Below the pieces are notes generated by a model that was not told the DNA's origin, did no database searches, and worked only from the letters and a program-made list of their open reading frames with translations. DNA of 41,969 nt from a virus: the IMG/VR virus record IMGVR_UViG_3300021961_000005, one strand, 5' to 3'. The translations under genes and the position numbers were made by a program. Below, one piece after another: positions 6,717 to 33,824 of the stretch (within the stretch, counting starts at the first letter, position 1; every line of letters begins with the position of its first letter).

Positions 6717-6734
6717 AGAGGAGATCACCTGCTG

Positions 6735-8856: not shown

Positions 8857-8869
8857 AGCCGATCTCGAC

Positions 8870-11658: not shown

Positions 11659-11675
11659 GAAGAGAGGAAGAACCG

Positions 11676-12341: not shown

Positions 12342-12358
12342 CAGAAGGAGGGCCCAAC

Positions 12359-13357: not shown

Positions 13358-13378
13358 GCTTGAGAAAGGAGATCAGAC

Positions 13379-13846: not shown

Positions 13847-13852
13847 GACCTC

Positions 13853-13874
13853 GGCGGGGCCTCCGGGCCCCGCC
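13853..13874 (+). terminator. GC-rich hairpin after the capsid/cement genes (attenuator-type terminator candidate)
   Basis: GGCGGGGCC / TCCG / GGCCCCGCC gives a 9-bp all-GC stem, followed by only TT. Confidence 0.45.
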
Positions 13875-13902
13875 TTCACCATCCTAGGAAGAGGATACCC
13901 AC

Positions 13903-14226
13903 ATGCCTATCAACGTACGTTTCGACAAAGTCGGCTTCTACCACCCCGCCTACGGGCGCATGGGTCGCGGAAAGAATGCCGGTCGCGTCTACACCCTGCC
14001 TGATTTCTTCATGACCGAAGGCAAGCTCCCCCTGTCCGCTGAGATCATCGAGGACAAAGAGAAGCTCGCCGAGATCCTCGAAGAAGAGAACCAGCCCCGC
14101 CCGATCAAGCCAAAGGTGGTCGACGAAGAGCAGCTCAAGCGCTCCGAACAGGCCTCGACATCTTCGGTGTCCAGCAACCGGCGTCCACCGGTGCGTTCGC
14201 GCCGCAAACCCAGCTCCGAGGAATAA
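13903..14226 (+). CDS. Hypothetical protein (107 aa) with basic C-terminal tail
   Basis: ORF with GGAAGAGGA upstream and natural composition. Confidence 0.6.
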   Translation: MPINVRFDKVGFYHPAYGRMGRGKNAGRVYTLPDFFMTEGKLPLSAEIIEDKEKLAEILEEENQPRPIKPKVVDEEQLKRSEQASTSSVSSNRRPPVRSRRKPSSEE

Positions 14227-14229
14227 GCT

Positions 14230-14826
14230 ATGAGCTCCGAAGTCCAGATCGCGCGCCTTGCTCTCCAGCACCTTGGTGATCGTTTCGACATCACGTCGCT
14301 GGATGAAGCCACGCCGGAGGCCGAGCAGGTCAAGCTCGTCTTCGACAATGTGCGCGACATGGTTCTTCGAGAGCACCCATGGAAATTCGCCCGTAAATAC
14401 ACGACGCCTGCCGCATTGGCTGGCGTCGTGCCGGGCAACTGGGACTACATGTTCACCTACCCAAGCGACGCCCTGCGGGTCATCCGCATCGTCAATCCGC
14501 TGGGCGACAACCAGCCGCCCATCCGGTTCGAGGTCGCGCGCAACAGCGCCGACGTGCACGTCATCCTGTGCAACGAGAGCGAACCGACCCTTGAATACAC
14601 CAAGCAGGTCACCGACCCGCAGCAGTTCGACCCACAGTTCGTCACCGCTCTGGCGTATCGCATCGCCCAGTACATCGCGATGCCGATCACCGGTGACCGT
14701 TCGATCATGTCCGACATGAAGACCCTTGCTGACCTCGAGGTCGGGAAGGCACAGGCAACCGATGCCAACGAAGGGTTCGAAGCGGTACGCCCTGCCGAAG
14801 CAACTTGGATCACCGCGAGGAATTGA
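14230..14826 (+). CDS. Head-tail adaptor / tail tubular protein A (T7 gp11-like)
   Basis: The N-terminal pattern IARLALQHLGDRFDITSLDE...VFDNVRDMVLREHPWKFA is characteristic of gp11-type adaptors. It lies directly before the nozzle gene. Confidence 0.65.
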   Translation: MSSEVQIARLALQHLGDRFDITSLDEATPEAEQVKLVFDNVRDMVLREHPWKFARKYTTPAALAGVVPGNWDYMFTYPSDALRVIRIVNPLGDNQPPIRFEVARNSADVHVILCNESEPTLEYTKQVTDPQQFDPQFVTALAYRIAQYIAMPITGDRSIMSDMKTLADLEVGKAQATDANEGFEAVRPAEATWITARN

Positions 14827-14829
14827 TGC

Positions 14830-17616
14830 ATGGCAAAACTCATCCAGCCCAGCTTTGCCGGTGGTGAGGTATCCCCTTCTGTAGCAGCCCGCGTCGATCT
14901 ATCGAAGCGGGCGGCTGCCGTTGAGCGGGCCGAGAACTTCTTTGTTCGCGTCACTGGTGGGATGGAGAGCCGCCCGGGCATGCGCTTTATCGCCGAGGCC
15001 AAGACCACTGGCACCACGCGCCTGATCCCATTCGAGTTCAACACCGAGCAGACCTACATCATCGAGCTCGGCGATCAGTACATGCGCTTTTACACCTACG
15101 GCGGCCAGATCCTGAGCGGCGGCTCGCCCTACGAGATCGCGACGCCATACCTTGCAGCTGATCTATTCGCCATCGAGTTCGCGCAGAGCGGCGACGTCAT
15201 GACGCTCGTACACCCAAACTACGCACCGCGCGAGCTAGTGCGTATCACCAATACCAACTGGACGCTGACCGAGATTTCGTTTGAGCCCAGCCAAGCTCCG
15301 CCCACCGCATTGTCGCTGACCAACAACTACACTCAGAGCGGCGACATAGCGTCAGTCACCAAGGCCAACCCGGCTGTGGTCACGTCGACAGGGCACGGGC
15401 TGTCCACCGGTGCCGAGATCGAGATCACGGGCGTCGTCGGCATGACTGAGCTCAACGGCAACACCTACCGCGTTGTCATCATTGACGGCGACACGTTTCG
15501 GTTGGAAGGCGTCGACAGCAAAGGCTACAACAATTACAACAGCGGAGGCACATGGACCGTCAACGGCGACACCCTTAAATACAAGGTCACGGCCAACAAC
15601 CGAGACACGTTTGAGGAGAGCTTGGCTGGGCTTAGCTCTGCGACGCTGTCGATCACTGGCGCAACACAAGCCAACCCTCTAGTGATCACAACCGCAGTTG
15701 CTCACCAGCTGGAGTACGGCGACGAGATTTACATCAACAACGTCGGCGGCATGACGCAGCTTAACGATCGCCGGTTTCTTGTTCTGGATACCCCGACTTC
15801 GACAACTCTCCAGCTAATGAGCACCGGGCGCGCGGTCATCGACAGCACCGGGTACACGGCCTACACATCAGGCGGCACCATCCAGACGGCGTTTGTCAAG
15901 ACGCGGGCTACTGCCCAAAGCTGGGACAACACCGTTTTTTGGACGGCTGCGGCAGACGCCGATACCTATAACGTCTACCGAGCCGACGATAATGGGGTCT
16001 TTGGGTTTATTGGGCGGGTCGATATTGATGCTTTCCACGATGTATTTATCGAAGCCGACATTGGCGACACTGCCCCGCTCGCCGCCAATCCATTTGAGGA
16101 AGGTGCGGGCTTCTGGCCAAGTATCACAGGCTTCTTCCAGCAGCGTCAGATCTACGCCAATTCGGATGCATTCCCCAACAGGTTCTGGATGACGCAGACC
16201 GGCGTGTTCTACAACTTTGCCACCTCCTCGCCTCTGCGCGATGACGACGCCATTGTCGCCACCCTGTCTGCCCGCCGCATCAACGAGATCCGCCACATCA
16301 TTCCCCTCAGTGATTTGGTGATCCTGACCACCGGCGCAGAGTTTCGCGTCAAGGGCGCTGGCGATGCTGCGTTCACCCCACCCACCATCAATATCAAGCC
16401 GCAGAGCTACTACGGATCGACCGCCCTGCGCCCGATCGTTGCCGGTGACGTGGCGCTGTACATGGCACCGGGCAATTTCATTCGCGAGCTGTCCTATGAG
16501 TTCGCCACCGACAAATTCACAGGCCGTGACATCACCGTCCTTGCGCGGCACCTACTGGATTACAACGACGTCGTAGACTGGGGGTTTGCCTCCTCGCCGT
16601 ACGATCTGATCTGGTTGGTTCGCGATGACGGCACCGCGTTAACGCTCACCTACCAGCGTGAGCAGGAGGTCTTCGCTTGGACCCGTGCCTCGACGCAGGG
16701 CGACTTCAAGAGCGTTGCTGTGGTCCGTGAGGGCGATCACGATATTCCGTATTTTCTCGTGCAGCGCACGATCAACGGCACCGTCAAGCAGTTCGTCGAG
16801 CGCCTCGATGAGCGCGAGTTCGACGACCTGCAGGATGCGTTCTGCGTCGACTGCGGGCTGACGCTCGATGTGCCGATCACCATCACCAACATGACGGCAG
16901 CCGATCCCGTCGTGGTCACCGCCCCATCGCACGGGCTGAGCAATGGCGACACCGTCGACCTCTCGGACGTGATCGAGGTATCCAGCAGCAACACCCGGCG
17001 AGAAGTGGCATCGACAGATTACACCGGCACCGGCTTCACCGTGGCCAACGCCACGACGAACACCTTCGAGCTCAATCTCAATGGTTCGGGGTACGACGGT
17101 TCTGGCTTCGCTGCTTACTCTTCCGGTGGCGTAGTCAGGAAGGCGGTCACCACTTTGTCCGGGCTGGCTCACCTTGAGGGAGCAGAGGTGGTGGCCGCCG
17201 CCAATGGCTATGCCGAAACGGGGCTCACGGTGTCCGGTGGGTCAGTCACGCTCAGCGCGCCTGCCAGCCGTGTGCACATCGGCCTTCCCTATACCTGCCA
17301 AATGATCACGCTGCCGATCTCGACCTACGGCGGCAGCAACACCGTCGACAAGCGCACCATGAACATCAACCGCCTGACCGTGCAGGTCGAGCGCACCATG
17401 GGCATGTGGACCGGCCCGAGCACCGACCTGATGCGCGAAGCCAAGTTTGGCATGCCTAGCAACTACGGGCAGCCCCTGCCCATGGTCACAGAGGACGTCA
17501 ACACGACGATCAAAGGCGACTGGAGCAAAGAGAAGCAGGTCGTGATCGAGCAGCGTTCTCCGCTGCCGATGACCATCCTCGCCGTAGTGCCTGACGTGGC
17601 TGTGGGGGGCAACTGA
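14830..17616 (+). CDS. Nozzle / tail tubular protein B (T7 gp12-like) with three inserted repeat domains
   Basis: The N-terminus PSFAGGEVSPSVAARVDLSKRAAAVERAENFFVRVTGGMESRPG is typical of gp12-like proteins. Three internal modules of about 70-87 aa lie at 15349-15555, 15646-15882 and 16875-17136. Confidence 0.8.
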   Translation: MAKLIQPSFAGGEVSPSVAARVDLSKRAAAVERAENFFVRVTGGMESRPGMRFIAEAKTTGTTRLIPFEFNTEQTYIIELGDQYMRFYTYGGQILSGGSPYEIATPYLAADLFAIEFAQSGDVMTLVHPNYAPRELVRITNTNWTLTEISFEPSQAPPTALSLTNNYTQSGDIASVTKANPAVVTSTGHGLSTGAEIEITGVVGMTELNGNTYRVVIIDGDTFRLEGVDSKGYNNYNSGGTWTVNGDTLKYKVTANNRDTFEESLAGLSSATLSITGATQANPLVITTAVAHQLEYGDEIYINNVGGMTQLNDRRFLVLDTPTSTTLQLMSTGRAVIDSTGYTAYTSGGTIQTAFVKTRATAQSWDNTVFWTAAADADTYNVYRADDNGVFGFIGRVDIDAFHDVFIEADIGDTAPLAANPFEEGAGFWPSITGFFQQRQIYANSDAFPNRFWMTQTGVFYNFATSSPLRDDDAIVATLSARRINEIRHIIPLSDLVILTTGAEFRVKGAGDAAFTPPTINIKPQSYYGSTALRPIVAGDVALYMAPGNFIRELSYEFATDKFTGRDITVLARHLLDYNDVVDWGFASSPYDLIWLVRDDGTALTLTYQREQEVFAWTRASTQGDFKSVAVVREGDHDIPYFLVQRTINGTVKQFVERLDEREFDDLQDAFCVDCGLTLDVPITITNMTAADPVVVTAPSHGLSNGDTVDLSDVIEVSSSNTRREVASTDYTGTGFTVANATTNTFELNLNGSGYDGSGFAAYSSGGVVRKAVTTLSGLAHLEGAEVVAAANGYAETGLTVSGGSVTLSAPASRVHIGLPYTCQMITLPISTYGGSNTVDKRTMNINRLTVQVERTMGMWTGPSTDLMREAKFGMPSNYGQPLPMVTEDVNTTIKGDWSKEKQVVIEQRSPLPMTILAVVPDVAVGGN

Positions 17617-18065
17617 TGATCCGTGAGCTAAACCACGATGACCTGCCGCAGCTGCTGGAGCTGGCGCGCGAGATGCACCGCACGGGCGTCTATGCCGCCT
17701 ACCCTATGGACGAGGCCCGCGTCGCGTACATCCTGACCCGCCTGATCGAGGTGCCAGAGGCGCTGTCGATCGGCTATGAGGTCAGCGGCGAGCTGGTAGG
17801 TGCGTTTATCGGGGAGATCATCCAAGATCTTTGGATCGATGTGCGCGTCGCTGCTGATCACGCATTCTATGTGCGCGAGGCAGATCGAGGCAGCCGCGCC
17901 GGTATTATGCTGCTGCGAGCCTTCGAAAAGTGGGCCGCAGAAACTGGCGCTGACGTTCTGCGCCCTGTCGTGTATGCTGGCGTCGACAACCAGACCGTCA
18001 ACAACGTGCTGCAGCGTATGGGCTATGAGGGCGCGGGCACCGTACACAAGAAGGAGGCCGCATAA
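17616..18065 (+). CDS. GNAT-family N-acetyltransferase
   Basis: The acetyl-CoA motif RGSRAG lies in ADRGSRAGIMLLRAFEKWA. The protein is 149 aa with the typical GNAT layout. It overlaps both neighbours by 1 nt (TGATG, TAATG). Confidence 0.78.
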   Translation: MIRELNHDDLPQLLELAREMHRTGVYAAYPMDEARVAYILTRLIEVPEALSIGYEVSGELVGAFIGEIIQDLWIDVRVAADHAFYVREADRGSRAGIMLLRAFEKWAAETGADVLRPVVYAGVDNQTVNNVLQRMGYEGAGTVHKKEAA

Positions 18066-18631
18066 TGTGTATCAGTGCAACCGTCTTAGCGATCGCCTCC
18101 ACCGCACTCCAAACGGTCAGCGCGGTCCAGCAGGCCAACGCCCAAAAGGCGCAGGCAGAATACAATGCCGCCGTCGCCCGCAACAACGCCATCATTGCAG
18201 GACAGAATGAAGCGGACATCATCCAGCGAGGTGAGGTCGCTCGAGATATTCAGCGCATCCGCATTGACCAAACCATTGGCGCGGCTCGCGCCGTTATGGC
18301 AGGCAGTGGCCTGTTGCTTGAGGGCGGTGGAGAGACCACAACAGGGGCGCTGCTTGGCGACCTGCAGACCGCAGGCCAGTTCGACATCATGACGCTCAAA
18401 GGCAACATCGACCGAGAAGCCCGCCGCGCCAGAATTGAGGGCGTTCAGTTCCAAGCACAAGCAGGCTTGTTTGATCTGCAGGCGTCATCGATCAACCCAA
18501 TGCTCGCCGGTGCAGCTGCCGGGTTCTCCAGCCTAGTCTCCAGCGCAAACATCTTTGCTCCCAATACGCCAACCTTTGGCAGCAGTGGCCAGACCCGGCC
18601 CCGTGCTCGCCCGGCGGATCTTCTTGGTTAA
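18065..18631 (+). CDS. Internal virion protein (gp14-position)
   Basis: Hydrophobic N-terminus ISATVLAIASTAL followed by an A/Q-rich helical region. The call rests on position in the T7-like order gp12-(13)-14-15-16-17. Confidence 0.5.
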   Translation: MCISATVLAIASTALQTVSAVQQANAQKAQAEYNAAVARNNAIIAGQNEADIIQRGEVARDIQRIRIDQTIGAARAVMAGSGLLLEGGGETTTGALLGDLQTAGQFDIMTLKGNIDREARRARIEGVQFQAQAGLFDLQASSINPMLAGAAAGFSSLVSSANIFAPNTPTFGSSGQTRPRARPADLLG

Positions 18632-18643
18632 GGATAAATCTGC

Positions 18644-20374
18644 ATGGCTCTTCGTATCCCAACACCGGACATTCAAGGCGCACAGCGCTTAGGTGTAGCG
18701 CAGGCACAGGCTGCGGACACCCCGTTTCAGCGCCTGACCTTACCCGATACGACGTTCAACTCGCGCATGCTGCAGCAGCTCGGCGAGAGCGGGGCGCGGT
18801 TTGCCAACTTTATGCAGGAGCAGGAAGACGAGCGTTTGCTGCTCGAGCTGCAGGCTGGCGTCGGAGACTGGGAGCGCAGTACTCTCTATGGCGAGGACGT
18901 CACTGGCGCACCCACCGGGTCGGGCGGGCTGCTGGCGCTGCAAGAGCGTGATGCGTTTGGTATCACGCAGCGCGTTGAAACGAGTTTTGAAGAGCACTTG
19001 GCTGAATACAACGCGAGCCTGACTGGGCTGTCACGCAATGGTCGGTTGGCGGCACAGCAGTTTGCAGAGAGGCGGCGCAATGCGTTACTGGATCAGGCCG
19101 CGCGCTTTGAGTTTCAGCAGCGTGAGGCTTACAATAACCGGCTGCGCCGGGAGGCAGAGGCCGCAGCTGCGCGCGCTGCAGAGACCGCATGGGCGACGCC
19201 AGAGGCGATGGCCGCCGGTGAGGCACGCCTGATCTCGGCCACCACCAACCGGGCTACCTATGAGTTCGCTGGTGTGCCGGACGAAACTGAGCGGCAGCGC
19301 CTGATCGACGAGGCGGTCGCTGCAGAGGTAGAGCAGTTCCAGCGCACGGCAGTCATGCGGGCGATCGGTCAAGGGCAGACACAGGTTGGTCGTCGGCTTT
19401 ATGACGAGGCCGTAGATCGCGGCACCATTACACTGACTGAGGACGACCTCCTGACCCGCACCGTGCAGTACGGTGAGCAGATCGATGTCGTCATCAACGG
19501 GGCGACGTCGATCTATCAGCAGTACCCGGAAGACCTCGCTGGGGCGACGCAGGCTGCCAGAAGTATGGGGCTGGATGGCGATACAGAGCGAGATCTCGTC
19601 GCCGAAATCGAGCGCCGCTTCTCAAGCGCTGCCGCCGTCGAAGCTCAGCAGCGCGAGCAGACATTTGAAGCAGCCCGACAATCCTCCTTGAACGGCACCC
19701 TACGCACTGACTTCGACCGCGCTCAGCTCGCGCAATTTAGTTCTGAGGAGCGTGCTTACCTTGATCAGTTAAACAGTGGGGACGACCCAGTCGGCGACCT
19801 GACGCTGTTCAGAACCCTTCAGCTTCTACCCGCTGCAGACTTGGCGGCTTACGACCTCTCAACGGTGGCCAGTCAGCTTAGCACCCGCCAGATGGACGCT
19901 CTGATCGCCGCTCAGCTCGCTGCGCGCAACGTCGGGTCTCGATCTAATCCTTATGCGTGGCAGGGTATCCGTACCGAGCAAACTACCATTGACACGACGA
20001 TCACTGCCATGGGTATCCCCGTCGGTGGGGACGCCCGCGAGGATGATATCGCCAACCGAAACCAACTCTATCTGTTGATGGAGGGAGAGAAGCAGCGCCG
20101 CCTTGCTGCTGGCGAGGCGTGGGACGCCAGAGCCATCTCCGAGTACGCCGATTTCCTGAATACGCCTGTCGTCATATCTGAGGGGGTGGTCTACGGCGTA
20201 AACACCGCGCCTCGCTGGCAGGTGCTGTTGGGGAAGACAGCCGTAGAGTTCGTCCCCGGCGTCCCCCCGGAGGCGCTATCAGCGATCAGGAGGGCCATTG
20301 AAGCTCGTGGGTTACAGGCGACGCCAGAGCTGATACAACAGGTGTACACGCAGTCCCAAGCTGCAACAGAATAG
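18644..20374 (+). CDS. Internal virion protein (gp15-position)
   Basis: 576-aa helical, A/E/R/Q-rich protein. The call rests on position only. Confidence 0.5.
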   Translation: MALRIPTPDIQGAQRLGVAQAQAADTPFQRLTLPDTTFNSRMLQQLGESGARFANFMQEQEDERLLLELQAGVGDWERSTLYGEDVTGAPTGSGGLLALQERDAFGITQRVETSFEEHLAEYNASLTGLSRNGRLAAQQFAERRRNALLDQAARFEFQQREAYNNRLRREAEAAAARAAETAWATPEAMAAGEARLISATTNRATYEFAGVPDETERQRLIDEAVAAEVEQFQRTAVMRAIGQGQTQVGRRLYDEAVDRGTITLTEDDLLTRTVQYGEQIDVVINGATSIYQQYPEDLAGATQAARSMGLDGDTERDLVAEIERRFSSAAAVEAQQREQTFEAARQSSLNGTLRTDFDRAQLAQFSSEERAYLDQLNSGDDPVGDLTLFRTLQLLPAADLAAYDLSTVASQLSTRQMDALIAAQLAARNVGSRSNPYAWQGIRTEQTTIDTTITAMGIPVGGDAREDDIANRNQLYLLMEGEKQRRLAAGEAWDARAISEYADFLNTPVVISEGVVYGVNTAPRWQVLLGKTAVEFVPGVPPEALSAIRRAIEARGLQATPELIQQVYTQSQAATE

Positions 20375-20382: not shown

Positions 20383-23300
20383 ATGGCTGACGAACTGGAC
20401 TTCTCGGGCGCACTGGATCGGGTCTTGCAACAGCAGGCCACCGGAGCTCCTACGGTATCGCCAATCCCATCGGCAGCCCCACTTGCCCCAACCACAAACC
20501 TACTGACTGGTGCAGCACCGGCACCATCTCCGTTTGCGGATGCACTGGATCGCGTCATCCGGGGCGACACGGTACCGCCACCTGTAGCCACAGCACCGGA
20601 TATGGTGCCTGATACATCTGCGCTAGGAGCAGACGCCCCGGCTCAATCTGCACAAGAGGCGGCGTCTGGCGTCGCTGCTGCCAACGGCCTGCTTGGCGAC
20701 GGCGTGAGCCCAGAGGTAATTGCAGAGGTCCGCCGTATAGCCAGAGATAAGCGCATCCCCCTGCCGCTTGCAGCGCAGACCTATATTGCGCGGGCTCAGG
20801 CAACCCCGGGCGATCGGTACCGCCGTTTGCTGCAGGAAAACCCCGGCTTGCGACGCATGGCTACCCAAGGCGGCGCATACGCCGACTTCATGCCAGACGC
20901 CGCCGCGCTTGCCACGACAGAGCAGGCGTTCACCGAAGCCCGCAAAGAGTGGTCCGTCGGTGGGGATAGATTAGATGACACGCTGGTCGGGCGCGCGATC
21001 ACGCGCGGCACCCTGCAGACCATCGCCTCCCTACCGGCCCTAGCAGCCTCCTTGGATCTTGGCGTCGCTCTCGATATTGGGGCGACCGAAGAGCAGATCC
21101 TCGAGCGCCTCGCGGCACCGTACGGCGGTTGGGCTGCGATGGAGAACTACCCTGCGTCGATGCGGGTGTCCGTGCTGGCAGCTGCAAGGCAGCAGTACAA
21201 CCTCGTTCAAGGGCTGACCGACGATGATCGAGTTGCTGCTCTTCAGCGGGCGGGCGAGTACTACTTCAGCGCGCAGCAGCTTGTCACCCAAGCGGAAGGG
21301 CTGGTCCGAAACCCCGGCAGCCAGCGCTTTATTACGAACACCCTGTCTCAGGCCCCAGACACGGTTGCCGGGACACTTGAGGCGTTTGCGTCTGACCCCG
21401 TAAACGGCGGGCTGTTCCTTGCAGAGACCATCCTCGAGAGCGCACCCAACATCGCTGCGACGATCATCATCTCGCGGGTGACAGGGTCGCTGTCGCTTGG
21501 TGCTGTGGTTGGTGCAACGGCAGGTGGCGGGCGCGAGTACGTCCTGTCCACTACACAGTTCTTGGCCGAGCGTGGCTACACCATTAACTCGGTCGAGGAC
21601 GCCATAGCCATCCTGCAGAACGCAGAGCTTATGCAAGAGGCGGCAGACTTTGGTTTTGCTCGGGCAATGCCCATCGCGATCCTTGACGCCCTCGCAGGCG
21701 TCGCATCTGGGGTGCGCCTCGGGCGCACTGCCCTCGGTGATGTCGTTGCACAGACCGCCGTTCAGGGGGCATCGGGTGCCCTTGGCGAGATGGGTGCCCA
21801 GATCGGCAGCGAAGGTAAGATCACCAGCGTACGAGATATCACGATCGAAGCGCTTGCAGAGCTACCCACGGCGCTGATTGAGGTGCCGCTTGCCGCAGGC
21901 CGGTCATTTGGGTCGGAGCGCCTTCCGCCAGAGCTCAATCAGCTCCTTGCTCCAAATGGCCTGCAGAGCGCGGCAGATCAGGCCGCCGCAGCACAGCAGG
22001 CGCTGGAGACCACCCGTGCCGCCATCGAGGAGACCGCCACCTTTGCCAGAGACCCTGATGCAGTGCGCGAGCTACTCGTGGCGTCGGGCGATCAGGAGGT
22101 GTCTATCCCCGTGCAAGAGATCGAGCGCCTGTATCAGGAAGGCGCGCTCACGGACGACGACCTCGCGTACCTGAACGTCGAAGACGAGCTGACCCAACAG
22201 GGCGAGCTGTCCGGCGATGTGGTCACGACAGCGAGCCGCGTCCTGACGCTGCAGGGCGACGCCTTTGCCAGCCTTTCCGAGCATGTACGGACGCAGGCTG
22301 GGGCCCCGACTGCAGCCGAGGCGCGTGAGGCCTTGGCTAACCGGGAAGCCGATATCGCGCGCCTGCAGGCAACGCTGGAGCAAGCGCAGAACGTGGCAGG
22401 CGAGATCAACACGCTGGCCGACGCGATCACCGAGCAGCTGCGCTCTACAACCGGTCTATCTCGAGGGCAGGCTCGCGCTGCCGCCCGCCTACTGGCTGAG
22501 CGCTACGCCGCCCGCGCTGCGCTCTTCGAGCCCGGCACGACGGCGCAGAGCCTGTACGAGCGCGACCGTGTGACATTCGAAACTGAGGGTCGGGCCGCAC
22601 CTGCACCAGACCTAGAGCAGCCTGCAATCAGAAACGACCTGATCGCTCGCCGCATGCAGCGCACAGGCGTACAAACTGTTGATGATTTCTGGCAGCGCTG
22701 GCGAGACACCATGGTCGCCACGGCAGGCCCAGATACCCGATTGTCTATGGAAGGCTTATCTGCCCCCATGTCCGGTCGTGTTGAAGCAATGCTTTCTGGG
22801 CTTCGGGAAGAGGCTCGGGCTACCGATTTAGGTACCGTTATTACTCAGCGGTTTGGCCTTAATGACGATGGTACAATCAAAGCCCGCATCCCAAGAGATA
22901 TACTGATCCGGGCAGGTATTAGCCCGACGCCTGAGAACTTGAGCACCGTAATCAGCGCTTTAGAAAGCCCTGCGGACGAGACCCAAACTTTTGAGCAGGC
23001 GGCTGCAGATATTGGAAATGCTCGGCAGCGGCTGGCGGATGATCCTGCGTCCTTGGGCCTAGACCCAGAACTCGCGGCTTCGATCAATCCGATCTACCGG
23101 CCCGAGGCCCTGCCCCCCAGTCGGATGAAGGGGTCGAACCAAGAGGCCGCGCAATTCCTCGAAGACACTTATGCAGACGACCCAATCACCGACCTGACGG
23201 CGGAGATTACCCCTGAGCGCCTAGATCGTATTGCGACCCAGATGGCTGCGGAAACTGAGCTGGCCCTTGAAAGCACCGGCAACGCTGCTGACTGGTACTC

Positions 23301-26300
23301 CGCCGCGCTCGACCGCACGCTGAGTGTTGCCGCTGTCAAGTATCCGATGCTGACCTCTGACGCTGCCGCCGAGGCTGCAGGCCTTGGCACGGCGGCCAAT
23401 GCGCGGTTCTTGTTTACCTACATCATGGCTACCACGTCTCAGAACCTCGACGTTGCGGCCAACGCCAAAGCGACAGACGCCGCCTTTGAGCAGATGCTCG
23501 CGCGCTGGGCGGCGGGCGATTATACGATGGACACCAAGCGCTGGGGCACTGGCGACAAGAAAAAGGCGATGAACGAGAACTTCGCCAAGTTCAATCGCAT
23601 GCTCCCAAAGATGCCGGGTGACACCGCAGTGGAGCGGCTGTCGGCCATGGATCGGCTGTTCCGCCAATCCAATACGGTCGGGGAGTGGACGCGACTGATG
23701 GATGCGGCGGGCATCCCATACAGCCCTCCGGGTCAGACCGCTGTTGACGCTGTCGTGTATGGGTCATCGACGCTCGGACCCAAGATCGGAAACGGTTTCT
23801 GGCAAAACCTGAACGGCAACTTTTCTCCGCTGACCATCGATCTGTGGATGCGTCGCACATGGGGCCGGTTGACGGGAAAAAGCATCGGCCTTGAAGACGC
23901 GCTGCCGGGACAGCGCGACCGGTTAAAGGCGGCAGTTCGCCGCTCGCGGTCTCGCACAAAAGACATCGACGCTTATGTCTCCGAGCTGCAAGCCCAGTTG
24001 GATGCAGCCACCACCACCCTCGACACGCTGACCATCAACGACTTCGGGACCAAAAAGGCGTTCAATGCTGAGACGCGACGCCTGCGTGCAGAGGCGTCAA
24101 ACCTTCGCGAGGTGATCGCGGACGCCAAGGGCGTAAAGGCCGCTGAACCCTACAAGGCAGCATACAACACCGACAACGCGGCCTTGCTGGCCTATGCCAA
24201 GCGGCTGCTAAAAGTGTGGGACACAGAGTACAAACGCCTCGTTGCCCAATATGGCGCTGACGCCATCCCTGACGACTTGCAACCCACATGGGCGCGTGCG
24301 GCAAAGACCATCCGTGCCAACCTTGGTACGCCACTGGATCAGGTTGCCAACGGCACCCAGCGTCGCCAGATCGAGACTGCGGGGCGGCTCGCTATTCAAA
24401 AGCTCTCTGCTCGCGGGATCAATGTCACGATGGCGGATATGCAAGCGCTCTTGTGGTATCCTGAAAAAGAGCTATGGTCATCGCTGACCAGAAAGTTGGA
24501 TGTCGATGAAGACGGCGTTCCGATCCCGATCACGTCCAACCTGAATGAGAGTTATGACGCGGTATTCACGCGCATTTTGGGAGAGCAAGGTTATGAAGTC
24601 CAAAGAGGCACTGGAACTGGAGCAGGAGCAGCTGGAGATCGAGCCGTCTTTGAGCAACCTGACGTCGCTGGAGAGCGCGACCAAGGAACAGATGGCGAAG
24701 CTGTTCGAGCAGATCAACGCGGACGAGGAACAGGCGGGTATTCGAGCGGAGGCCTTACGCCGCTTGAAGGTGCGCCAACTGTCGTCGGGGCAGCTGGCCC
24801 CGACCCAGAGCTCGTCGCCGTCGCAGAGCAATACGCCGCCGCAAACGGAATAGATCTCCGCCGTCAGGCAGAGTTCGTTGAAGTCGATCCTGAGCGGGCC
24901 GCGCGCATCGCTCAGGCTTACGAAGAGATGGCGCACGCGCCACAAGACCCTGCGGTGCAGGCGGCTTATGCTGACCTGATCCAGCAAACCATCGCCCAGT
25001 ACCAAGCACTGGTTGACGCCGGGTACACATTCACCTTCTTTGACAGCGAGACCGACCCCTACGCGGGCAATCCGTGGAACGCCATGCGCGACCTGCGCGC
25101 CAACAAGACGATGGCAGTCTACGGCACCTATGACGGCTACGGCACCGAAGGCCTGACCCAAGCGGCCATCGATGATAACCCGATGCTGCAGGACACCGGG
25201 CTGGTGTGGCTCGACCAGAACGGCGTCGAGCGCCCGGTCACCGCCAACGACCTGTTCCGCGCTGTGCACGACGCATTCGGTCACGGCATCGAGGGTGCGG
25301 GGTTCCGCGCACGCGGCGAAGAGAACGCATGGCAGGCGCACGTTCGCCTGTTCACCGGGCCAGCGATCGGCGTGCTCACCAGCGAGACCCGGGGCCAGAA
25401 CAGCTGGCTCAACTACGGCCCGTTCGGCGAGCAGAACCGCACCGCCAGCGTCGAGGACACGGTGTTCGCCCCGCAGAAGGCGGGCATCATGCCGGAGTTC
25501 ACATGGACTGAAGGCCGGTCCGCAGATGCAGCTATTGCCTCCCCTACCCCCAGCCCTGCGCTGGAGCAGCCCGGACCGACGCCGGGGCAGCCCGCGCCAG
25601 CGCCCGAGACGCCGCAGCAAGGCACAGTCGGCGCGCCGCGTGGGGCGTACCGGCTGCCCACTACAGATGACCTCCGCAACCTGATCACCCTGTCTGCAAA
25701 TGCAGACCCATCGACCTTCGTGCACGAGGTCGGTCACATGTTCCTGTTCCAGATGCTGCGGGACATTGCAGATACGCGCATCACGCCGGAAGGCAAGGCG
25801 CAGCTGGAAGCGCAGATCGCCGCCACCCGCGCGTGGTTTTCCAGCAACGCAGCGCAGGGTCTGGCTGATCTCAAGGTTATGGCCAAGGACATGACCAAAC
25901 GTGCAGCCGCTGCACCTGATGATGCTGAGCTGCAGCTGCGCGCATCTCGCCTGACCGCCGCTGTGCAGCGCGCGGACGCCGGGGGCGGTGCCGCTTACAT
26001 GGAACAGGTCGCACAGGCCTTTATGGACCCGGCATCCCCGGGCCGGGATGAAGCAGCCGAGGTCGTGTATCACGAGCTGTGGGCCCGTGGCTTCGAGAGC
26101 TACCTCGGCACAGGCAGCGCACCCAGCGCCGAGCTCCGCAACGTGTTTGCCAAGTTCGCGCAATACATCAGCAACGTGTACAAGAGCCTGCGCCGCCTAA
26201 ACGTGACGGTGTCCCCCGAGGTCGCCGATGTCTTCGACCGCCTACTGGCGACCGAAGACGCCATCACGCAAGAGCGCCGGGGCGCGATGTACCAGCTGTC

Positions 26301-29300
26301 TCCGGGCGTCCTTGAGGGCGCTACGCCAGCCGAGGCCAATCAACTACGCAAGCTGGCGTCGGAGGCCGAAGATCAGGCGCGGACCGAGATGGCGTCTCGC
26401 GTGGAAAACAGTCTCAAGACCGAGGCGCGCGCCAAGCGTCGTGCGCGGCGTGAGGTACTGGCCAACGAGATCTCCGAGCAGGTCGCGGCAGAGCCTGTGT
26501 ACGCGGCGACCAACATCGCCAAGCGCGGCACCCTGCCTGACGGCACCAAGACCGGCACCGGCAAGATAGATCGCGCTGAGCTTGTTGCGGTCGCCGGTGA
26601 AGAGGCGGTGTCCCGTATGCCATCCGGCATGGTCTCTGGCCGGGTGCGACCAGACAACGCCATCCCCCTCGGGGATCTGGCCACCCTGTCTGGCTTCGCC
26701 GACATCTACAGCATGATCGAGGCGCTGACCAACCCGACGCCGACCCCAGAAGCCACGGCGGTCAAGGAGCGCACAGACGCCGCCATGCTGCAGGAGTTCG
26801 GCGCTGATCTGGACGCCCGAGCGCTTCAGACCAAAGCAGTCGAAGTCGTGCAGAACGACAAGTTCCAGCAGCTCCAACAGCTGCAGCTCCGCATTCTGCG
26901 GCGGCTGGCAGCGCAACCCATGGCGCGGATCGCCCAGCGTCAGGCCGAGCAGGAAGGCGCGCCTGCCGCAGCAGTGGATCGCGCAGCCACTGAGGCCGCG
27001 CAGGCAGAGCAGGGTGCAGCACGCACGCCCCGTGAGGGCGTACAGGCCGCGCTCGCTCGGATCAGAGCAGACGTGCAGAAGACCGCAAACGCCAGTCAGC
27101 GCCGCGCTCAGGCCGCAGCACGCAGGCAGACCGCAGCGATCAGGCTAGGTATGGACCCTGCAGCGATCACCGCAGCAGCCCAGCGTTACGTCAGGACAAT
27201 CAAGGTCAAGGATGCAACGCCCGCCCGCTATCGTCAGGCGGCAGCACGATTGACTGCCAAGATCGAGCGCGCCATCGCTGATCGGGATTATACGCAAGCG
27301 GCGACGCTCATGGAGCAGCGCGCACTTAATCTGGCGGTCGCCAAAGAGGCGTCGCTCATTCAGACCAAGATCGAGACACAGCGCACCCGGTGGCGTGAGG
27401 TCACGGCAAGATCTGACAAGCGGCTGGCGCAGCGTTATTCGATCGACTGGGTCAACGCGATCCGGGTAGTGCTGGAGCCCTTCGGCATGGCGCGCAGCAT
27501 GCCGCGAAACTATGACCCGGTCCGCGCTCTGGCGGATCTGCAAGCGGTCGAGCCGACGCTTTATACCGAGATCCAGTTGGCGATCAGCAACTATGCAGCT
27601 CGGTCACGGGATGCAGCACAAGCCGACCCCAACAACCCGTACAAAGACCTGAGTGTGCAGGAAGCGCTCGACCTACTCGAGACTGCCGACACGATGCTGG
27701 CAAACGCACGCGACAGCCACGGCATTCTGGTTGAGGGCCGCCGGGTTGAGTTCGTCGCCATCGCTGATGAGGTCTCGGTCAATGTAAGCAAGCGACGTAA
27801 GGTGCAGAAACAGGCAGGCCGCTTGGGACGAGGTCGCGGTAGCCGCACGTTCCGCGAGACCCGCCGCCAGCTCGGTGCGTTCAAGGCAAGCCTGCGCCGG
27901 ATCGAGCAGTGGGCCCGTGACTTTGACAACGGCAACCCTCGCGGCCCGCTGACCCGATACCTCGTGCGCCCGATCATGGCTGCGGTCGATGCTTACACCG
28001 TCGCCCGGAAAGGACCGCAAGAGGCACTGGCTGCGCTACTTCGCAAGCGCACTGACCTGATGGCGCGCCGCCCCATCCGCGCACAGGAGCTGGATGGCTA
28101 CGTTTTCCAGACCAAGGGCGAGCTGATCATGGCGCTGCTGCACACAGGCAACGACAGCAACAAGCGCAAGCTGCTTCTGGGTGGCGCGACAGATGTGGAG
28201 ACCAACCGCCGTTATGTGTGGGGCAGCCAAGACGCCGAAGGCAACCTCGACACCTCCCGCTGGGATACCTTTATTGATCGGCTGTTTGCCGATGGCACCC
28301 TGACGCAAGCTGATATGGAGCTGGTGCAGGGTATCTGGGACATCTTCGAGCAGACCAAGCAGGCGGCGCAGGCGGCGCACAAGCAGATGTACGGGTACTA
28401 TTTTGCCGAGGTGCAGGCAGATCCTGTGGTCACCCCGGTCGGCATCTATCCGGGAGGCTATGCGCCAGCGATCACCGACAGCATGATGAACCCGGATGGT
28501 GCACGCTTTGAAGCCGAAGAAGTGATGTCGCAGCAGTCAAATGCCTCGATGTTTCCCGGCGCTGAAAAGGGCTTCACGCAATCTCGCACAGAGTACAACC
28601 AGCCGCTGGACCTCGACCTGACGCGCATCCCTGCTCACTTCGACCGGGTCATGAAGTTCGCCTACCTCGGCCCTGCAGTTCGGCAGGCAGCTCGCTTGGT
28701 GACCAACAGAGCCTTCCGCGAGGCCGTGCGCCCCGGCAGCCCTGACGTGATTGATGTTGCCGTCATCCCGTGGCTGCAGCGCACGGTGCAGCAGCGCGTC
28801 ACCACCCCGCCCACCAATCAAGGGTGGTCTGGTGTGTCCCGGGTTGCTTCAGCCATCGACCGCCGCGTCGGCCTGCACATCATGGCTGGCAACATAATCA
28901 ACGCAGCGCAGCAGATTACCGGCTTCTCGGTGGCTGCCGCCCGCATCCCTGCGCGACACTTGGCTGTTGCCGCCACCCGGTGGCGGGTCAACAATCAGTC
29001 GGTTCGGGCATACATCATCGCGCAGTCGCCATTTATGGAAGAGCGTATGACTGGCGGGATGAACGAGGCCAGCACAACCCTAGAAAAGATCCTAAGTGAA
29101 CCGGGTTTATTAAATCGGTCGCAAGCCGCCGCGTCTCGCTATGGCTACTTTGCACAGCAGATCGCGCAAAACTTGGTCGACCCCACGGTCTGGATCGCAG
29201 CTGAACGGCATGGCATGGAAATCGTGTACCCAGCCGCCTATGCTGAAGTTCTCGACAGAACAGGAGACGAGGCTGCCGCCGACACCGCAGCTCGGGCAGA

Positions 29301-30018
29301 GGTCGTGGCTTACGCCGACAGCATTGTGCGCGACACGCAGGCACCCATGAGCCCAAGTGATGTTTCTGGCATCGAGGCCTCCTCACCGCTCGCTCGCCTG
29401 TTCCTGAAGTTCTATTCGTACTTCAACGCGATGGGTAACCTGCTGGTGACCGAGAAGAACATCGCGATGAACAGCGATATGGGCTGGGCCGGTAGGTACG
29501 GTCGGTCCTTCTATGCCTACCTGATGATCGTGACGATCCCGACGATTGTTGCAGAAAGCATTGCTCAGCTGGCGCGCGGAGGCTTCGAGGATCTCGAGGA
29601 TGAAGACGAGCGCGACCAGCTGATGTTCGAGCTGCTCATCGGGTCACAGCTCAAGACCATGGCAGCCATGGTGCCACTTGCTGGATTGGTGGTGTCGACT
29701 ACTTACGGCATCGTTGTGACAGATCAAGTCTACGATGACCGGATCAACCTGTCGGCTGGTATCGGCGTGACCGAAAGCACGCTGCAAAACCTCGCCCGCT
29801 TGATTGTCGCAGCTGCTGACCCAGACACGGATATCGAAACTCGGCGCGCGATCCGCACAACACTGGATGCGCTAGGCCTTGCGCTCGGCCTGCCGACTAA
29901 CTGGGCGAGCAAGCCGATCAGCTACGCGGTCAGCGTCTCTGAAGGCGACAGCAGACCAGAAGGCTTCGGTGACATCCTCCAAGGTGCGCTCACAGGCAAA
30001 GATGGAACTGACCGATGA
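20383..30018 (+). CDS. Giant (3,211 aa) internal virion / ejection protein with polyvalent-protein features
   Basis: Single open frame in the gp16 position. It has the HExxH motif FVHEVGHMF (25723-25737) with a downstream YHELWARGFESYL (about 26068-26106). A separate module contains VHDAFGHG (25264-25287). There are Pro-rich and Gly-rich linkers and a long coiled-coil-like A/R/Q region. C-terminal hydrophobic helices lie at about 29506-29575 and 29650-29720. Confidence 0.85.
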   Translation: MADELDFSGALDRVLQQQATGAPTVSPIPSAAPLAPTTNLLTGAAPAPSPFADALDRVIRGDTVPPPVATAPDMVPDTSALGADAPAQSAQEAASGVAAANGLLGDGVSPEVIAEVRRIARDKRIPLPLAAQTYIARAQATPGDRYRRLLQENPGLRRMATQGGAYADFMPDAAALATTEQAFTEARKEWSVGGDRLDDTLVGRAITRGTLQTIASLPALAASLDLGVALDIGATEEQILERLAAPYGGWAAMENYPASMRVSVLAAARQQYNLVQGLTDDDRVAALQRAGEYYFSAQQLVTQAEGLVRNPGSQRFITNTLSQAPDTVAGTLEAFASDPVNGGLFLAETILESAPNIAATIIISRVTGSLSLGAVVGATAGGGREYVLSTTQFLAERGYTINSVEDAIAILQNAELMQEAADFGFARAMPIAILDALAGVASGVRLGRTALGDVVAQTAVQGASGALGEMGAQIGSEGKITSVRDITIEALAELPTALIEVPLAAGRSFGSERLPPELNQLLAPNGLQSAADQAAAAQQALETTRAAIEETATFARDPDAVRELLVASGDQEVSIPVQEIERLYQEGALTDDDLAYLNVEDELTQQGELSGDVVTTASRVLTLQGDAFASLSEHVRTQAGAPTAAEAREALANREADIARLQATLEQAQNVAGEINTLADAITEQLRSTTGLSRGQARAAARLLAERYAARAALFEPGTTAQSLYERDRVTFETEGRAAPAPDLEQPAIRNDLIARRMQRTGVQTVDDFWQRWRDTMVATAGPDTRLSMEGLSAPMSGRVEAMLSGLREEARATDLGTVITQRFGLNDDGTIKARIPRDILIRAGISPTPENLSTVISALESPADETQTFEQAAADIGNARQRLADDPASLGLDPELAASINPIYRPEALPPSRMKGSNQEAAQFLEDTYADDPITDLTAEITPERLDRIATQMAAETELALESTGNAADWYSAALDRTLSVAAVKYPMLTSDAAAEAAGLGTAANARFLFTYIMATTSQNLDVAANAKATDAAFEQMLARWAAGDYTMDTKRWGTGDKKKAMNENFAKFNRMLPKMPGDTAVERLSAMDRLFRQSNTVGEWTRLMDAAGIPYSPPGQTAVDAVVYGSSTLGPKIGNGFWQNLNGNFSPLTIDLWMRRTWGRLTGKSIGLEDALPGQRDRLKAAVRRSRSRTKDIDAYVSELQAQLDAATTTLDTLTINDFGTKKAFNAETRRLRAEASNLREVIADAKGVKAAEPYKAAYNTDNAALLAYAKRLLKVWDTEYKRLVAQYGADAIPDDLQPTWARAAKTIRANLGTPLDQVANGTQRRQIETAGRLAIQKLSARGINVTMADMQALLWYPEKELWSSLTRKLDVDEDGVPIPITSNLNESYDAVFTRILGEQGYEVQRGTGTGAGAAGDRAVFEQPDVAGERDQGTDGEAVRADQRGRGTGGYSSGGLTPLEGAPTVVGAAGPDPELVAVAEQYAAANGIDLRRQAEFVEVDPERAARIAQAYEEMAHAPQDPAVQAAYADLIQQTIAQYQALVDAGYTFTFFDSETDPYAGNPWNAMRDLRANKTMAVYGTYDGYGTEGLTQAAIDDNPMLQDTGLVWLDQNGVERPVTANDLFRAVHDAFGHGIEGAGFRARGEENAWQAHVRLFTGPAIGVLTSETRGQNSWLNYGPFGEQNRTASVEDTVFAPQKAGIMPEFTWTEGRSADAAIASPTPSPALEQPGPTPGQPAPAPETPQQGTVGAPRGAYRLPTTDDLRNLITLSANADPSTFVHEVGHMFLFQMLRDIADTRITPEGKAQLEAQIAATRAWFSSNAAQGLADLKVMAKDMTKRAAAAPDDAELQLRASRLTAAVQRADAGGGAAYMEQVAQAFMDPASPGRDEAAEVVYHELWARGFESYLGTGSAPSAELRNVFAKFAQYISNVYKSLRRLNVTVSPEVADVFDRLLATEDAITQERRGAMYQLSPGVLEGATPAEANQLRKLASEAEDQARTEMASRVENSLKTEARAKRRARREVLANEISEQVAAEPVYAATNIAKRGTLPDGTKTGTGKIDRAELVAVAGEEAVSRMPSGMVSGRVRPDNAIPLGDLATLSGFADIYSMIEALTNPTPTPEATAVKERTDAAMLQEFGADLDARALQTKAVEVVQNDKFQQLQQLQLRILRRLAAQPMARIAQRQAEQEGAPAAAVDRAATEAAQAEQGAARTPREGVQAALARIRADVQKTANASQRRAQAAARRQTAAIRLGMDPAAITAAAQRYVRTIKVKDATPARYRQAAARLTAKIERAIADRDYTQAATLMEQRALNLAVAKEASLIQTKIETQRTRWREVTARSDKRLAQRYSIDWVNAIRVVLEPFGMARSMPRNYDPVRALADLQAVEPTLYTEIQLAISNYAARSRDAAQADPNNPYKDLSVQEALDLLETADTMLANARDSHGILVEGRRVEFVAIADEVSVNVSKRRKVQKQAGRLGRGRGSRTFRETRRQLGAFKASLRRIEQWARDFDNGNPRGPLTRYLVRPIMAAVDAYTVARKGPQEALAALLRKRTDLMARRPIRAQELDGYVFQTKGELIMALLHTGNDSNKRKLLLGGATDVETNRRYVWGSQDAEGNLDTSRWDTFIDRLFADGTLTQADMELVQGIWDIFEQTKQAAQAAHKQMYGYYFAEVQADPVVTPVGIYPGGYAPAITDSMMNPDGARFEAEEVMSQQSNASMFPGAEKGFTQSRTEYNQPLDLDLTRIPAHFDRVMKFAYLGPAVRQAARLVTNRAFREAVRPGSPDVIDVAVIPWLQRTVQQRVTTPPTNQGWSGVSRVASAIDRRVGLHIMAGNIINAAQQITGFSVAAARIPARHLAVAATRWRVNNQSVRAYIIAQSPFMEERMTGGMNEASTTLEKILSEPGLLNRSQAAASRYGYFAQQIAQNLVDPTVWIAAERHGMEIVYPAAYAEVLDRTGDEAAADTAARAEVVAYADSIVRDTQAPMSPSDVSGIEASSPLARLFLKFYSYFNAMGNLLVTEKNIAMNSDMGWAGRYGRSFYAYLMIVTIPTIVAESIAQLARGGFEDLEDEDERDQLMFELLIGSQLKTMAAMVPLAGLVVSTTYGIVVTDQVYDDRINLSAGIGVTESTLQNLARLIVAAADPDTDIETRRAIRTTLDALGLALGLPTNWASKPISYAVSVSEGDSRPEGFGDILQGALTGKDGTDR
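24593..24853 (+). CDS. Candidate 86-codon ORF in the +1 frame, nested in the giant gene
   Basis: ATG at 24593 is preceded by GGGAGAG. Hand-counted GC3 is 72/86 here against 19/60 for the giant frame over 24601-24780. Translation is MKSKEALELEQEQLEIEPSLSNLTSLESATKEQMAKLFEQINADEEQAGIRAEALRRLKVRQLSSGQLAPTQSSSPSQSNTPPQTE. Confidence 0.4.
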   Translation: MKSKEALELEQEQLEIEPSLSNLTSLESATKEQMAKLFEQINADEEQAGIRAEALRRLKVRQLSSGQLAPTQSSSPSQSNTPPQTE

Positions 30019-33518: not shown

Positions 33519-33824
33519 ATGACTATCGAATACACTTGGACCATCGTCACCACAGAATACGAGACTGCTACTGGCGGGATCACCGTCGCTCACTGGCGCG
33601 TTTCTGCCGTTGACGGCGACTACACTGCCTCGGCCTATGGCGCTGCTGGCTTCACCCCTGACGCCACTGCACCTGACTTTGTGGCATACGACAGCGTCAC
33701 AGAGGACTTTGTGCTGCACTGGGTCTGGCGAAGCGTGCACAAGGACGAGACTGAAACCAACTTGGCTGCTCAGATCGACGCGCAGAAAAACCCTACGAGT
33801 GCCTCTGGGACGCCTTGGAGTTAA
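33519..33824 (+). CDS. Hypothetical protein (101 aa)
   Basis: ORF with GGAGACGGA upstream and natural composition. Its position after the fibre gene may point to a fibre accessory or assembly role, which is speculative. Confidence 0.6.
   Translation: MTIEYTWTIVTTEYETATGGITVAHWRVSAVDGDYTASAYGAAGFTPDATAPDFVAYDSVTEDFVLHWVWRSVHKDETETNLAAQIDAQKNPTSASGTPWS

Follow-up and report, generated by a model that had tools for sequence, protein, structure and literature searches.

A giant Bbp10-family protein of a BPP-1/epsilon15-like podovirus as a probable ejection protein with polyvalent-type cargo

A giant gene was analysed in the viral record IMGVR_UViG_3300021961_000005, the whole stretch of which (41,969 nucleotides, nt) is called the window here. 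The gene is a single open reading frame (ORF) without internal stops, which encodes 3,211 amino acids (aa) and occupies 9,636 of the 41,969 bases, the 23% that an earlier note on this DNA had assigned to it. The product is probably an internal virion (ejection) protein of the Bbp10 family of BPP-1/epsilon15-like podoviruses, which is built as a polyvalent protein and would deliver cargo. This reading is based on the architecture of the protein, its conservation pattern, the modules it has in common with polyvalent proteins, and synteny, all of which were observed directly. The earlier note had described a polyvalent effector carrier, and homology supports this description, since relatives encoded in the same gene slot carry LPD22, ART-PolyVal and PBECR1 domains; effector activity itself is inferred. 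The layout is an LPD22-like domain with a scaffold (aa 1 to about 725), cargo (about 725-1750), an HExxH module (about 1753-1965) and a body of about 1,250 aa. The features are as follows.

20383..30018, + strand: whole giant ORF, probable Bbp10-family internal virion (ejection) protein, 3,211 aa, no Cys
20698..20943, + strand: LPD22-like N-terminal domain, aa 106-187, weak match
21373..22551, + strand: N-terminal scaffold weakly common to relatives; Ala/Gly/Ile-rich and hydrophobic at aa 331-507, helical at aa 531-723
23200..24600, + strand: cargo module C/D, DUF7178-like, aa ~940-1406
24604..24756, + strand: Gly-rich linker, aa 1408-1458, 27% Gly
24754..25527, + strand: cargo module A, aa 1458-1715, alpha/beta, highly conserved
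25264..25287, + strand: VHDAFGHG of module A, aa 1628-1635, putative active site
25528..25638, + strand: Pro-rich linker, aa 1716-1752, 30% Pro
25639..26277, + strand: zincin-like HExxH module, aa ~1753-1965
26770..27432, + strand: Ala/Arg/Gln-rich helical segment, aa 2130-2350; 25% Ala, 14% Arg and 12% Gln, together 51%
27088..30003, + strand: conserved C-terminal body, aa 2236-3207, PHROG phrog_9880 (E 3e-233)
29506..29727, + strand: pair of hydrophobic helices at the C-terminus, aa ~3042-3066 and aa ~3084-3115, candidates for membrane insertion

The whole protein and tiles of 500-800 aa were searched against Pfam, the tiles were searched against NCBIfam, and PHROGs were searched as well. 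These searches yielded a sub-threshold LPD22 match, phrog_9880 and phrog_3170, the two PHROGs being without an assigned function. All the motifs and linkers listed in the earlier note lie where it had placed them, as judged from motif positions and composition windows, and its view that the cargo is uncharacterised also stands, since neither cargo module has a direct Pfam match or a Foldseek match in the PDB. The LPD22-like region (aa 106-187) matched the LPD22 regions of four relatives with an hhalign E of 0.023 over 26 columns and a local hidden Markov model (HMM) E of 0.0016, and the relatives have a significant LPD22 at the equivalent position. The scaffold behind it was aligned by BLAST in pieces, aa 331-502 with 220-411 of DC33, aa 345-507 with 296-457 of OANV1, and aa 531-723 with 451-644 of MW202722. 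The two cargo domains are each flanked by low-complexity linkers. At the C-terminus, the Kyte-Doolittle windows reach 1.6 and 1.82 (starts at aa 3042-3047 and 3084-3096) in segments that are kept in the relatives (alignment A2), and C-terminal transmembrane helices are reported to be universal in gp16-like proteins (PMC8954989). Weaker hydrophobic windows are found in the N-terminal part at aa 210-217, 344-362 and 420-429.

The family to which the giant protein belongs was delineated from its C-terminal part. In a tblastn search with the C-terminal 976 aa, one large homologous protein was found in each of 41 phage records, including those of BPP-1 (Bbp10), of Xanthomonas, Xylella, Vibrio and Cobetia phages, of Pseudomonas phage AF, Acinetobacter phage Ab9, Limnohabitans phage DC33 and zth2-2, and of two Manatee Spring contigs. 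A nucleotide search of the giant gene against 50,697 phage records gave no match. The homology to Bbp10 and to the 2,986-3,209-aa proteins of other podoviruses extends over the C-terminal ~1,450 aa, i.e., the HExxH module and the body. Four records were inspected, in which the homologue occupies the same slot.

Bbp10: 2,052 aa; LPD22 at aa 41-138 (E 3.5e-25); PBECR1 RNase at aa 643-729; HExxH at aa 797
MW202722: 3,209 aa; LPD22 present; ART-PolyVal; HExxH at aa 1928
DC33: 3,125 aa; LPD22 present; ART-PolyVal; HExxH at aa 1843
OANV1 gp16: 2,986 aa; LPD22 present; ART-PolyVal

Significant Pfam matches in these four are thus LPD22 (4/4), ART-PolyVal (3/4) and PBECR1 (in Bbp10). The giant protein resembles them in the HExxH (MPTase) module and body (22-38% identity in BLAST segments), the gene slot, the N-terminal position of LPD22, the variable middle and the near absence of Cys, but its LPD22 is degenerate, and neither an ART nor a PBECR domain is detectable in it by Pfam. 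A degenerate ART in aa 723-961, the place of the ART-PolyVal in the relatives, was considered and rejected, as there was no Pfam hit and no R-S-E/H-Y-E pattern by eye. The cargo of the relatives is PBECR1 in Bbp10, ART plus a DUF7178-like domain in DC33, and ART, a DUF7178-like part and module A in MW202722 and OANV1. By pairwise BLAST among the five proteins, the order of the modules is A, ART, C in OANV1, ART, C, A in MW202722, and ART, C without A in DC33, and in each of these they lie between the weakly conserved N-terminal scaffold and the HExxH module. Since the order differs among relatives, the cargo behaves as cassettes. In nine further members, the cargo comprises ART-PolyVal (4/9) as well as PBECR5, LPD37, DUF3293 and DUF7178, and has no Pfam match in 4/9.

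The extent of the family was determined with an HExxH-module profile, which was searched exhaustively against 1.84 billion representative proteins (clustered at 50% identity). The profile matched 11,603 representatives at E<=1e-3 and 4,988 at E<=1e-30, and the best 150 matches are mostly 1,800-3,565 aa long, with one of 4,793 aa. Architectures were counted in 145 new sequences from the best matches, which contain 151 copies of the HExxH domain. The family body HMM (A2) was present in 130 of the 145 and an LPD22-like HMM in 108. The length beyond the HExxH is nearly constant (median 1,238 aa), while the part that precedes it may be as short as 241 or as long as 3,263 aa. The constant stretch after the HExxH and the variable stretch before it indicate that the HExxH module belongs to the chassis and that the variable part lies upstream; judged from these sequences, the module is part of the conserved body and not cargo. 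The same 145 representatives are mostly 2,000-3,000 aa long and 13 of them reach at least 3,000 aa, so that the giant protein is no outlier within its own family. The earlier note had called it more than twice the usual size, which is right in comparison with T7 gp16 (1,318 aa) and does not hold for its own family.

Same-size near-equivalents of the giant protein are already in GenBank, where they are mis-annotated, and the family is very large. In MW202722, NC_005357, MW805363 and PQ492659, the homologues are named 'crystallin beta/gamma motif-containing protein', 'lysin containing a beta/gamma crystallin motif' or 'hypothetical protein'; these names look wrong, and none is descriptive of the protein. 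Phage DC33 itself is filed as Inoviridae despite its podoviral structural module. What is of interest here is the explicit link between an ejectosome chassis and swappable effector-type cargo, together with two abundant uncharacterised domains.

The position of the gene agrees with a role as an ejection protein. The structural operon runs in the order large terminase, portal, major capsid protein, Bbp16-like cement protein, nozzle, GNAT, T7_gp14-family protein, gp15-slot protein, giant protein and tail fibre, the last with a T7-type N-terminus. The neighbouring genes are listed below.

13379-13846: Bbp16-like capsid cement protein, 155 aa, Pfam PF21190 (E 1.3e-12)
14830-17616: nozzle/tail tube B
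17616..20374, + strand: upstream internal-virion-protein genes (GNAT, T7 gp14-like, gp15-slot), as the three following lines
17616-18065, + strand: GNAT acetyltransferase
18065-18631, + strand: T7_gp14-like protein, PF24072 (E 7.8e-6; 26.4 bits, just below the cut-off of 27)
18644-20374, + strand: gp15-slot protein, 576 aa

The match to Bbp16, the cement protein of BPP-1, supports a BPP-1-like capsid, and the portal is ~46% identical to the portals of phiV10/epsilon15-type phages, DC33 and zth2-2, which indicates that the virion module is BPP-1/epsilon15-like. The earlier note had placed the gene in the gp16 slot of a T7-like module. The slot is upheld by synteny, whereas the module can be called T7-like only if the term is taken as broadly as by Hardies et al. 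(PMC4819975). Like T7 gp16, the giant protein is the last and largest product of a gp14/gp15/gp16-type operon that precedes the tail fibre, has C-terminal hydrophobic helices and contains no Cys. It differs in being 2.4 times longer, in having no lytic transglycosylase domain, and in having the HExxH module and cargo. Its placement in the T7 gp16 family is based on synteny, on the C-terminal helices and on the published assignment of Bbp10 as a homologue of T7 IVP-D, which was obtained with customised methods not reproduced here (PMC4819975); the profile tests, given below, are negative.

The HExxH module contains the sole HExxH of the protein, HEVGH at aa 1781-1785 (nt 25723-25737). It is followed by YHELWARGFESYL from aa 1896, the His of which lies 116 aa beyond the first His of the HExxH, with HELWARGFE at aa 1897-1905 (nt 26071-26097). 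The HExxH is invariant in 9/9 aligned homologues and intact in 150/151 domain copies from the exhaustive search, and its residues therefore do not vary among homologues, as the earlier note had considered they might. The downstream helix HE.[WF]A..[FY]E is also conserved, and the invariant pattern in the nine homologues is RG...AD.ST..HE..H.FL, HE.[WF]A..[FY]E.Y..EG.AP and [TS].[ED][IV][RA].V.DR[ML]. The loop between the two helices is longer in the giant protein, by ~50-55 aa than in most homologues and by ~25 aa than in two of them. A word-indexed search with the HExxH region returned 2 proteins only, probably because low-complexity words swamped the index, and the exhaustive profile search was used instead. 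By BLAST, aa 1768-2159 match Bbp10 784-1148 (E 1.8e-25). Residues 700-1000 of Bbp10 seeded the zincin-like family CLCA_X, most members of which come from phages or mobile elements; its consensus is HExxHxxxD, and protease activity has never been demonstrated for it (Lenart et al. 2013, PMC3650047). The giant protein is like CLCA_X in its homology to the Bbp10 seed region and in the conserved HExxH. No significant match was obtained with PDB sequences, either by profile (A5) or by single-sequence search, which gave chance hits only. As far as sequence can tell, the module agrees with what Iyer et al. describe as the phage-type zincin module.

The comparison with polyvalent proteins (Iyer et al. 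2017, PMC5512222) extends this resemblance. These are very large multidomain proteins with a virion gene context, a zincin-like HExxH hub and LPD-type domains, and LPD22, ART-PolyVal and PBECR1-type domains define them (PMC5512222). The giant protein is likewise very large and lies inside a structural operon, and besides the body it comprises no fewer than four different modules (an LPD22-like one, a DUF7178-like one, module A and HExxH). Its HExxH module is a putative zincin-like hub, its LPD22-like domain is a weak match, and its modules recur in varying combinations in ART-, kinase-, RadC- and MuF-containing proteins. It differs in that module A has no Pfam LPD model and the HExxH module is not matched by MPTase-PolyVal. 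The earlier note had pointed to a polyvalent resemblance in the E-L-[FW]-A-R-[AG]-F-E-type pattern after the HExxH, and the LPD22, ART-PolyVal and PBECR1 domains of the relatives bear it out. The virion RNA polymerase of phage N4 (~3,500 aa; PMC13434306, PMC5512222) is likewise a giant protein with a zincin-like module, which is held in the capsid and expelled through the ejectosome; its payload is an RNA polymerase, whereas the giant protein has no polymerase domain, and no homology between the two was detected.

The literature bears on this link from both sides. The main text of Iyer et al. has no mention of gp16, 'internal virion' or Bordetella and thus does not connect polyvalent proteins with the gp16/IVP-D slot of podoviruses (PMC5512222), a review of ejection proteins covers gp16-like proteins of 609-1,337 aa only (PMC8954989), and our literature search found no paper joining 'polyvalent protein' with ejection-protein terms. 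Searches on the virion proteomics of Bbp10, on DUF7178 and on LPD22 turned up no relevant papers other than those cited here. A 2026 preprint on Xanthomonas phage PhiXacm4-11 describes a 2,300-aa gp35 in this slot, for which it found no structural similarity and which it proposes as a core candidate; gp35 may belong to the family.

Module A is a highly conserved part of the cargo. A search with aa 1441-1980 found 519 proteins at E<=1e-3, the top 120 of which all contain module A. The homologues are 50-80% identical and amount to hundreds of metagenomic and phage proteins, with no Pfam model over the region; phrog_3170 covers aa 1621-1685. The conserved motifs are NDLFRAVHDxFGHxxEG, GEENAWxxH and SETRGQNSW, with nearly invariant residues. 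At the VHDAFGHG motif, the H, D, G and H hardly vary among the homologues, and F, R and V do not vary at all. An AlphaFold2 (AF2) model of mixed alpha/beta type was obtained with a mean predicted local distance difference test score (pLDDT) of 90.9 and a predicted template-modelling score (pTM) of 0.88. Foldseek of this model against the PDB gave a best E of 0.78 and TM-scores <0.16, a profile search of PDB sequences gave nothing and a single-sequence search chance hits only, and in BFVD the Foldseek matches were solely uncharacterised phage proteins. Assignments as an HD-domain phosphohydrolase, an HExxH variant or a BECR RNase found no support, the model being mixed alpha/beta and Foldseek returning no such fold.

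Proteins with module A also hold ART-PolyVal, Kinase-PolyVal, LPD23, LPD37, RadC, DUF3293, DUF7178, GNAT or MuF-type domains. Module A occurs in cluster C mycobacteriophages (199 records) and in cyanophage 'large polyvalent protein' genes, together with DUF7178 in gp205 of Rhodococcus phage E3, and in free-standing proteins of ~300-370 aa encoded in phage late regions. One metagenome homologue (P0080) is interrupted by a Hint-type intein of ~368 aa (PF13403, PF14890), which ends just ahead of the residue aligned to V1628 (site at aa 1626-1628, nt ~25258-25266), with the junctions ...NDLFR|CFTPE...VHN|CVHDSFGHG. Inteins tend toward functionally critical sites. The position of this intein at the HD motif favours, without proving, an active site there. 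Module A appears enzyme-like because of its nearly invariant His, Asp, Glu, Arg and Asn residues, the 50-80% identity across unrelated contexts, the intein and the confident model.

Module C/D has 33 homologues, many of which are free-standing phage proteins of ~430 aa without Pfam annotation. Its AF2 model is all-alpha with a pLDDT of 76, rising above 88 in the core (aa ~975-1155), has a helical insert at about aa 1186-1305, and found no Foldseek match in the PDB at E<=0.001. No Pfam family matched aa 935-1410 of the giant protein, and DUF7178 (PF23802) was reached by 2/34 homologues at E 5.7e-4. In a profile-profile comparison, the DUF7178 set matched alignment A3 with an hhalign probability of 96.8% (E 2.5e-10, 124 columns); a local jackhmmer search joins the two sets, and both have the motifs WY, S..x.V..N, F[YW]QNL and T.D.W. 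Taken together, the two weak hits and the profile-profile match indicate that module C/D is, at the level of sequence profiles, a divergent DUF7178-like domain. It tends to be found with module A: DUF7178-like domains occur in 6 of the 10 representatives with module A and in 15 of the 135 others (odds ratio 12, Fisher p 7e-4), and at least 14 other proteins have the pair, usually with DUF7178 first. A free-standing DUF7178-like protein of 517 aa (P0124) is encoded at 8001-9554 of two loci (L007/L008) on JGI contigs of 633 and 666 kb, which may derive from a phage of very large size or from an atypical cellular genome; their genes mostly have no Pfam match, and the rest include thymidine kinase, He_PIG-repeat, DsbB and Metallophos.

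From these features, the following course of events can be proposed. A few copies of the giant protein would be packed in the capsid core alongside the gp14-like and gp15-slot proteins. On infection, the protein would be threaded unfolded through the portal and tail channel, and its C-terminal body and hydrophobic helices would help to form or anchor a channel across the envelope. The N-terminal cargo may then enter the cell interior before or along with the DNA. The zincin-like module would cleave the chain, the Gly-rich and Pro-rich linkers being the probable sites, and thereby free the cargo. Module A, probably with its DUF7178-like partner, might act as a metal-dependent enzyme on a conserved host component early in infection. 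Self-processing by the zincin modules of polyvalent proteins has been proposed (PMC5512222). The amino acid composition is consistent with such a passage: the giant protein has 0 Cys in 3,211 aa against 0.62% pooled over the other 14 main ORFs (P ~2e-9), and depletion of Cys would be expected for proteins that pass unfolded through the tail channel and then through the oxidising periplasm. The four relatives have 0 or 1 Cys, T7 gp16 has 0, as do 98 of 131 long family representatives, and the Cys content is 0.12% in module A homologues and 0.04% in module C/D (DUF7178-like) homologues.

We tentatively propose a more specific version, of which we are less confident than of the ejection role, in which module A is an unrecognised phage-specific enzyme of new fold, probably forming a dyad with the DUF7178-like domain, carried in the virion and injected to disable or re-program a conserved host component, with the Bbp10 family serving as a general chassis for swappable effectors. 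Its phage range would then comprise podoviruses, cluster C mycobacteriophage myoviruses and cyanophages. If the proposal of a cargo-delivering ejection protein is correct, the largest ejection protein in the very large BPP-1/epsilon15-like podovirus group doubles as a carrier of swappable effector-type domains, possibly with anti-defence activity. The effectors would be physically joined to the channel-forming protein, so that the time and place of their action are set at DNA entry, and new injected effectors could be found by reading the region that follows the LPD22 scaffold and precedes the HExxH module. The two conserved cargo domains are good structural and biochemical targets, one of them having a confident model and no solved structural relative.

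Several results weigh against this interpretation. The LPD22 match of the giant protein is below threshold (Pfam E 0.011; 16.4 bits against a cut-off of 28.6). Comparison of the body with T7 gp16 by hhalign (A2) gave a probability of 0.2%, and the best match of the body profile among PDB sequences was a fibronectin-binding protein (E 0.14), with no T7 gp16. In Pfam, the HExxH module matched neither MPTase-PolyVal nor a peptidase model beyond a 14-residue Reprolysin_3 hit, and it differs from CLCA_X in reading HEVGHMFLF, with Phe at the consensus Asp, where relatives have E, D, T or M. The N4 virion RNA polymerase is packaged unprocessed with its zincin-like module (PMC5512222), so that cleavage is no given. 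Module A and the DUF7178-like domain could both be structural, as no catalytic function is assignable to them, and the literature search found no experiment on packaging, ejection or cleavage of the giant protein or a close relative.

The main alternative, which we consider unlikely, is a purely structural or morphogenetic one. The giant protein would be an oversized core, ejectosome or molecular-ruler protein, the modules of which organise the core or the leading DNA end in the manner of MuF, with the HExxH module trimming proteins in head maturation and no action on the host. In its favour, a free-standing DUF7178-like protein of 426 aa (P0129), encoded within 6295-9281 of locus L006 on a 127-kb JGI contig, directly follows a DUF4055 portal gene, the usual MuF-type place, and E3 gp205 with its module A and DUF7178 is annotated as a structural protein. 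Much of the giant chain is helical and Ala/Arg/Gln-rich, and searches of it revealed no ART, PBECR, kinase or other known effector domain. However, the equivalent place in the relatives holds enzymatic effector domains (ART-PolyVal and PBECR RNases), and the cargo varies freely in content and order while the body is constant. The invariant polar residues of module A and its high identity across unrelated phages would also be unusual for structural padding, and the intein at the HD motif points in the same direction.

The second alternative concerns the HExxH module, which might be an envelope-breaching enzyme, i.e., a peptidase acting on peptidoglycan cross-links or a lipoprotein, that replaces the missing lytic transglycosylase and has no part in self-processing. 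The N-terminal lytic transglycosylase of T7 gp16 is not universal among gp16-like proteins, and it is known that a muralytic domain can pass from one ejection protein to another (PMC8954989). The earlier note had seen no lytic transglycosylase signature in the giant protein, and the Pfam search of the whole protein and tiles and the NCBIfam search of tiles likewise detected no muralytic domain. The 576-aa gp15-slot protein matched nothing in Pfam or among PDB sequences and lacks a muralytic motif, and no cell-wall-degrading domain was found among the internal virion proteins of this phage. The equivalent upstream gene encodes SLT in BPP-1 and GH108 in MW202722, with nothing detectable in DC33 or OANV1. 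This distribution could suggest a substitution, but the HExxH module is equally conserved where SLT or GH108 lies upstream, and it is therefore no substitute for either. It is present in essentially all 145 representatives, and has no similarity to known peptidoglycan peptidase families in Pfam or by profile against PDB sequences. Action of the module on the envelope is thus considerably less probable than the structural alternative, and self-processing within a cargo-delivering ejection protein is preferred.

It is scarcely credible that the long ORF arose artificially, through a chimeric assembly or through sequencing errors that joined separate genes. In favour of an artefact, a related 32-kb metagenome contig has three overlapping ORFs instead, and public gene calls on the contig of the window disagree about the start. 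Against it, a single ORF of 2,052-3,209 aa with this layout is found in each of four phages that were sequenced independently, and more than 100 representative proteins of 2,000-3,500 aa have the layout as well. An independent Logan assembly also yielded the identical 3,211-aa protein, and the split contig looks like the one with frameshift errors. In that contig (JGI Ga0634395_03372), which comes from a close relative, the homologous gene is divided at 6762-15008 (L010) into ORFs of 1,099 (with LPD22), 922 and 813 aa, and the module A region is 81% identical to that of the giant protein; the split probably arose from a frameshift error in that assembly, although a genuine split is possible.

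The start codon of the giant gene is unsettled. The ATG at 20383 lies 9 nt past the upstream stop and is preceded by a G-rich stretch, and one public gene call on this contig begins at Met74, for a product of 3,138 aa. The N-terminus is Ala/Pro-rich over aa 1-100 (20383-20682) and contains a motif twice, as F-S-G-A-L-D-R-V-L at aa 7-15 and F-A-D-A-L-D-R-V-I at aa 51-59; a start at Met74 would drop both copies.

Two further observations were made elsewhere in the window. A 101-aa ORF downstream of the tail fibre (33519-33824) has a full-length match to DUF7936 (E 2.3e-27). The major capsid protein (12359-13357) falls into a cluster of 179 members at 90% identity, found on contigs of up to 46 kb from JGI, ENA, Logan and NCBI, which indicates that this phage lineage is common in metagenomes.

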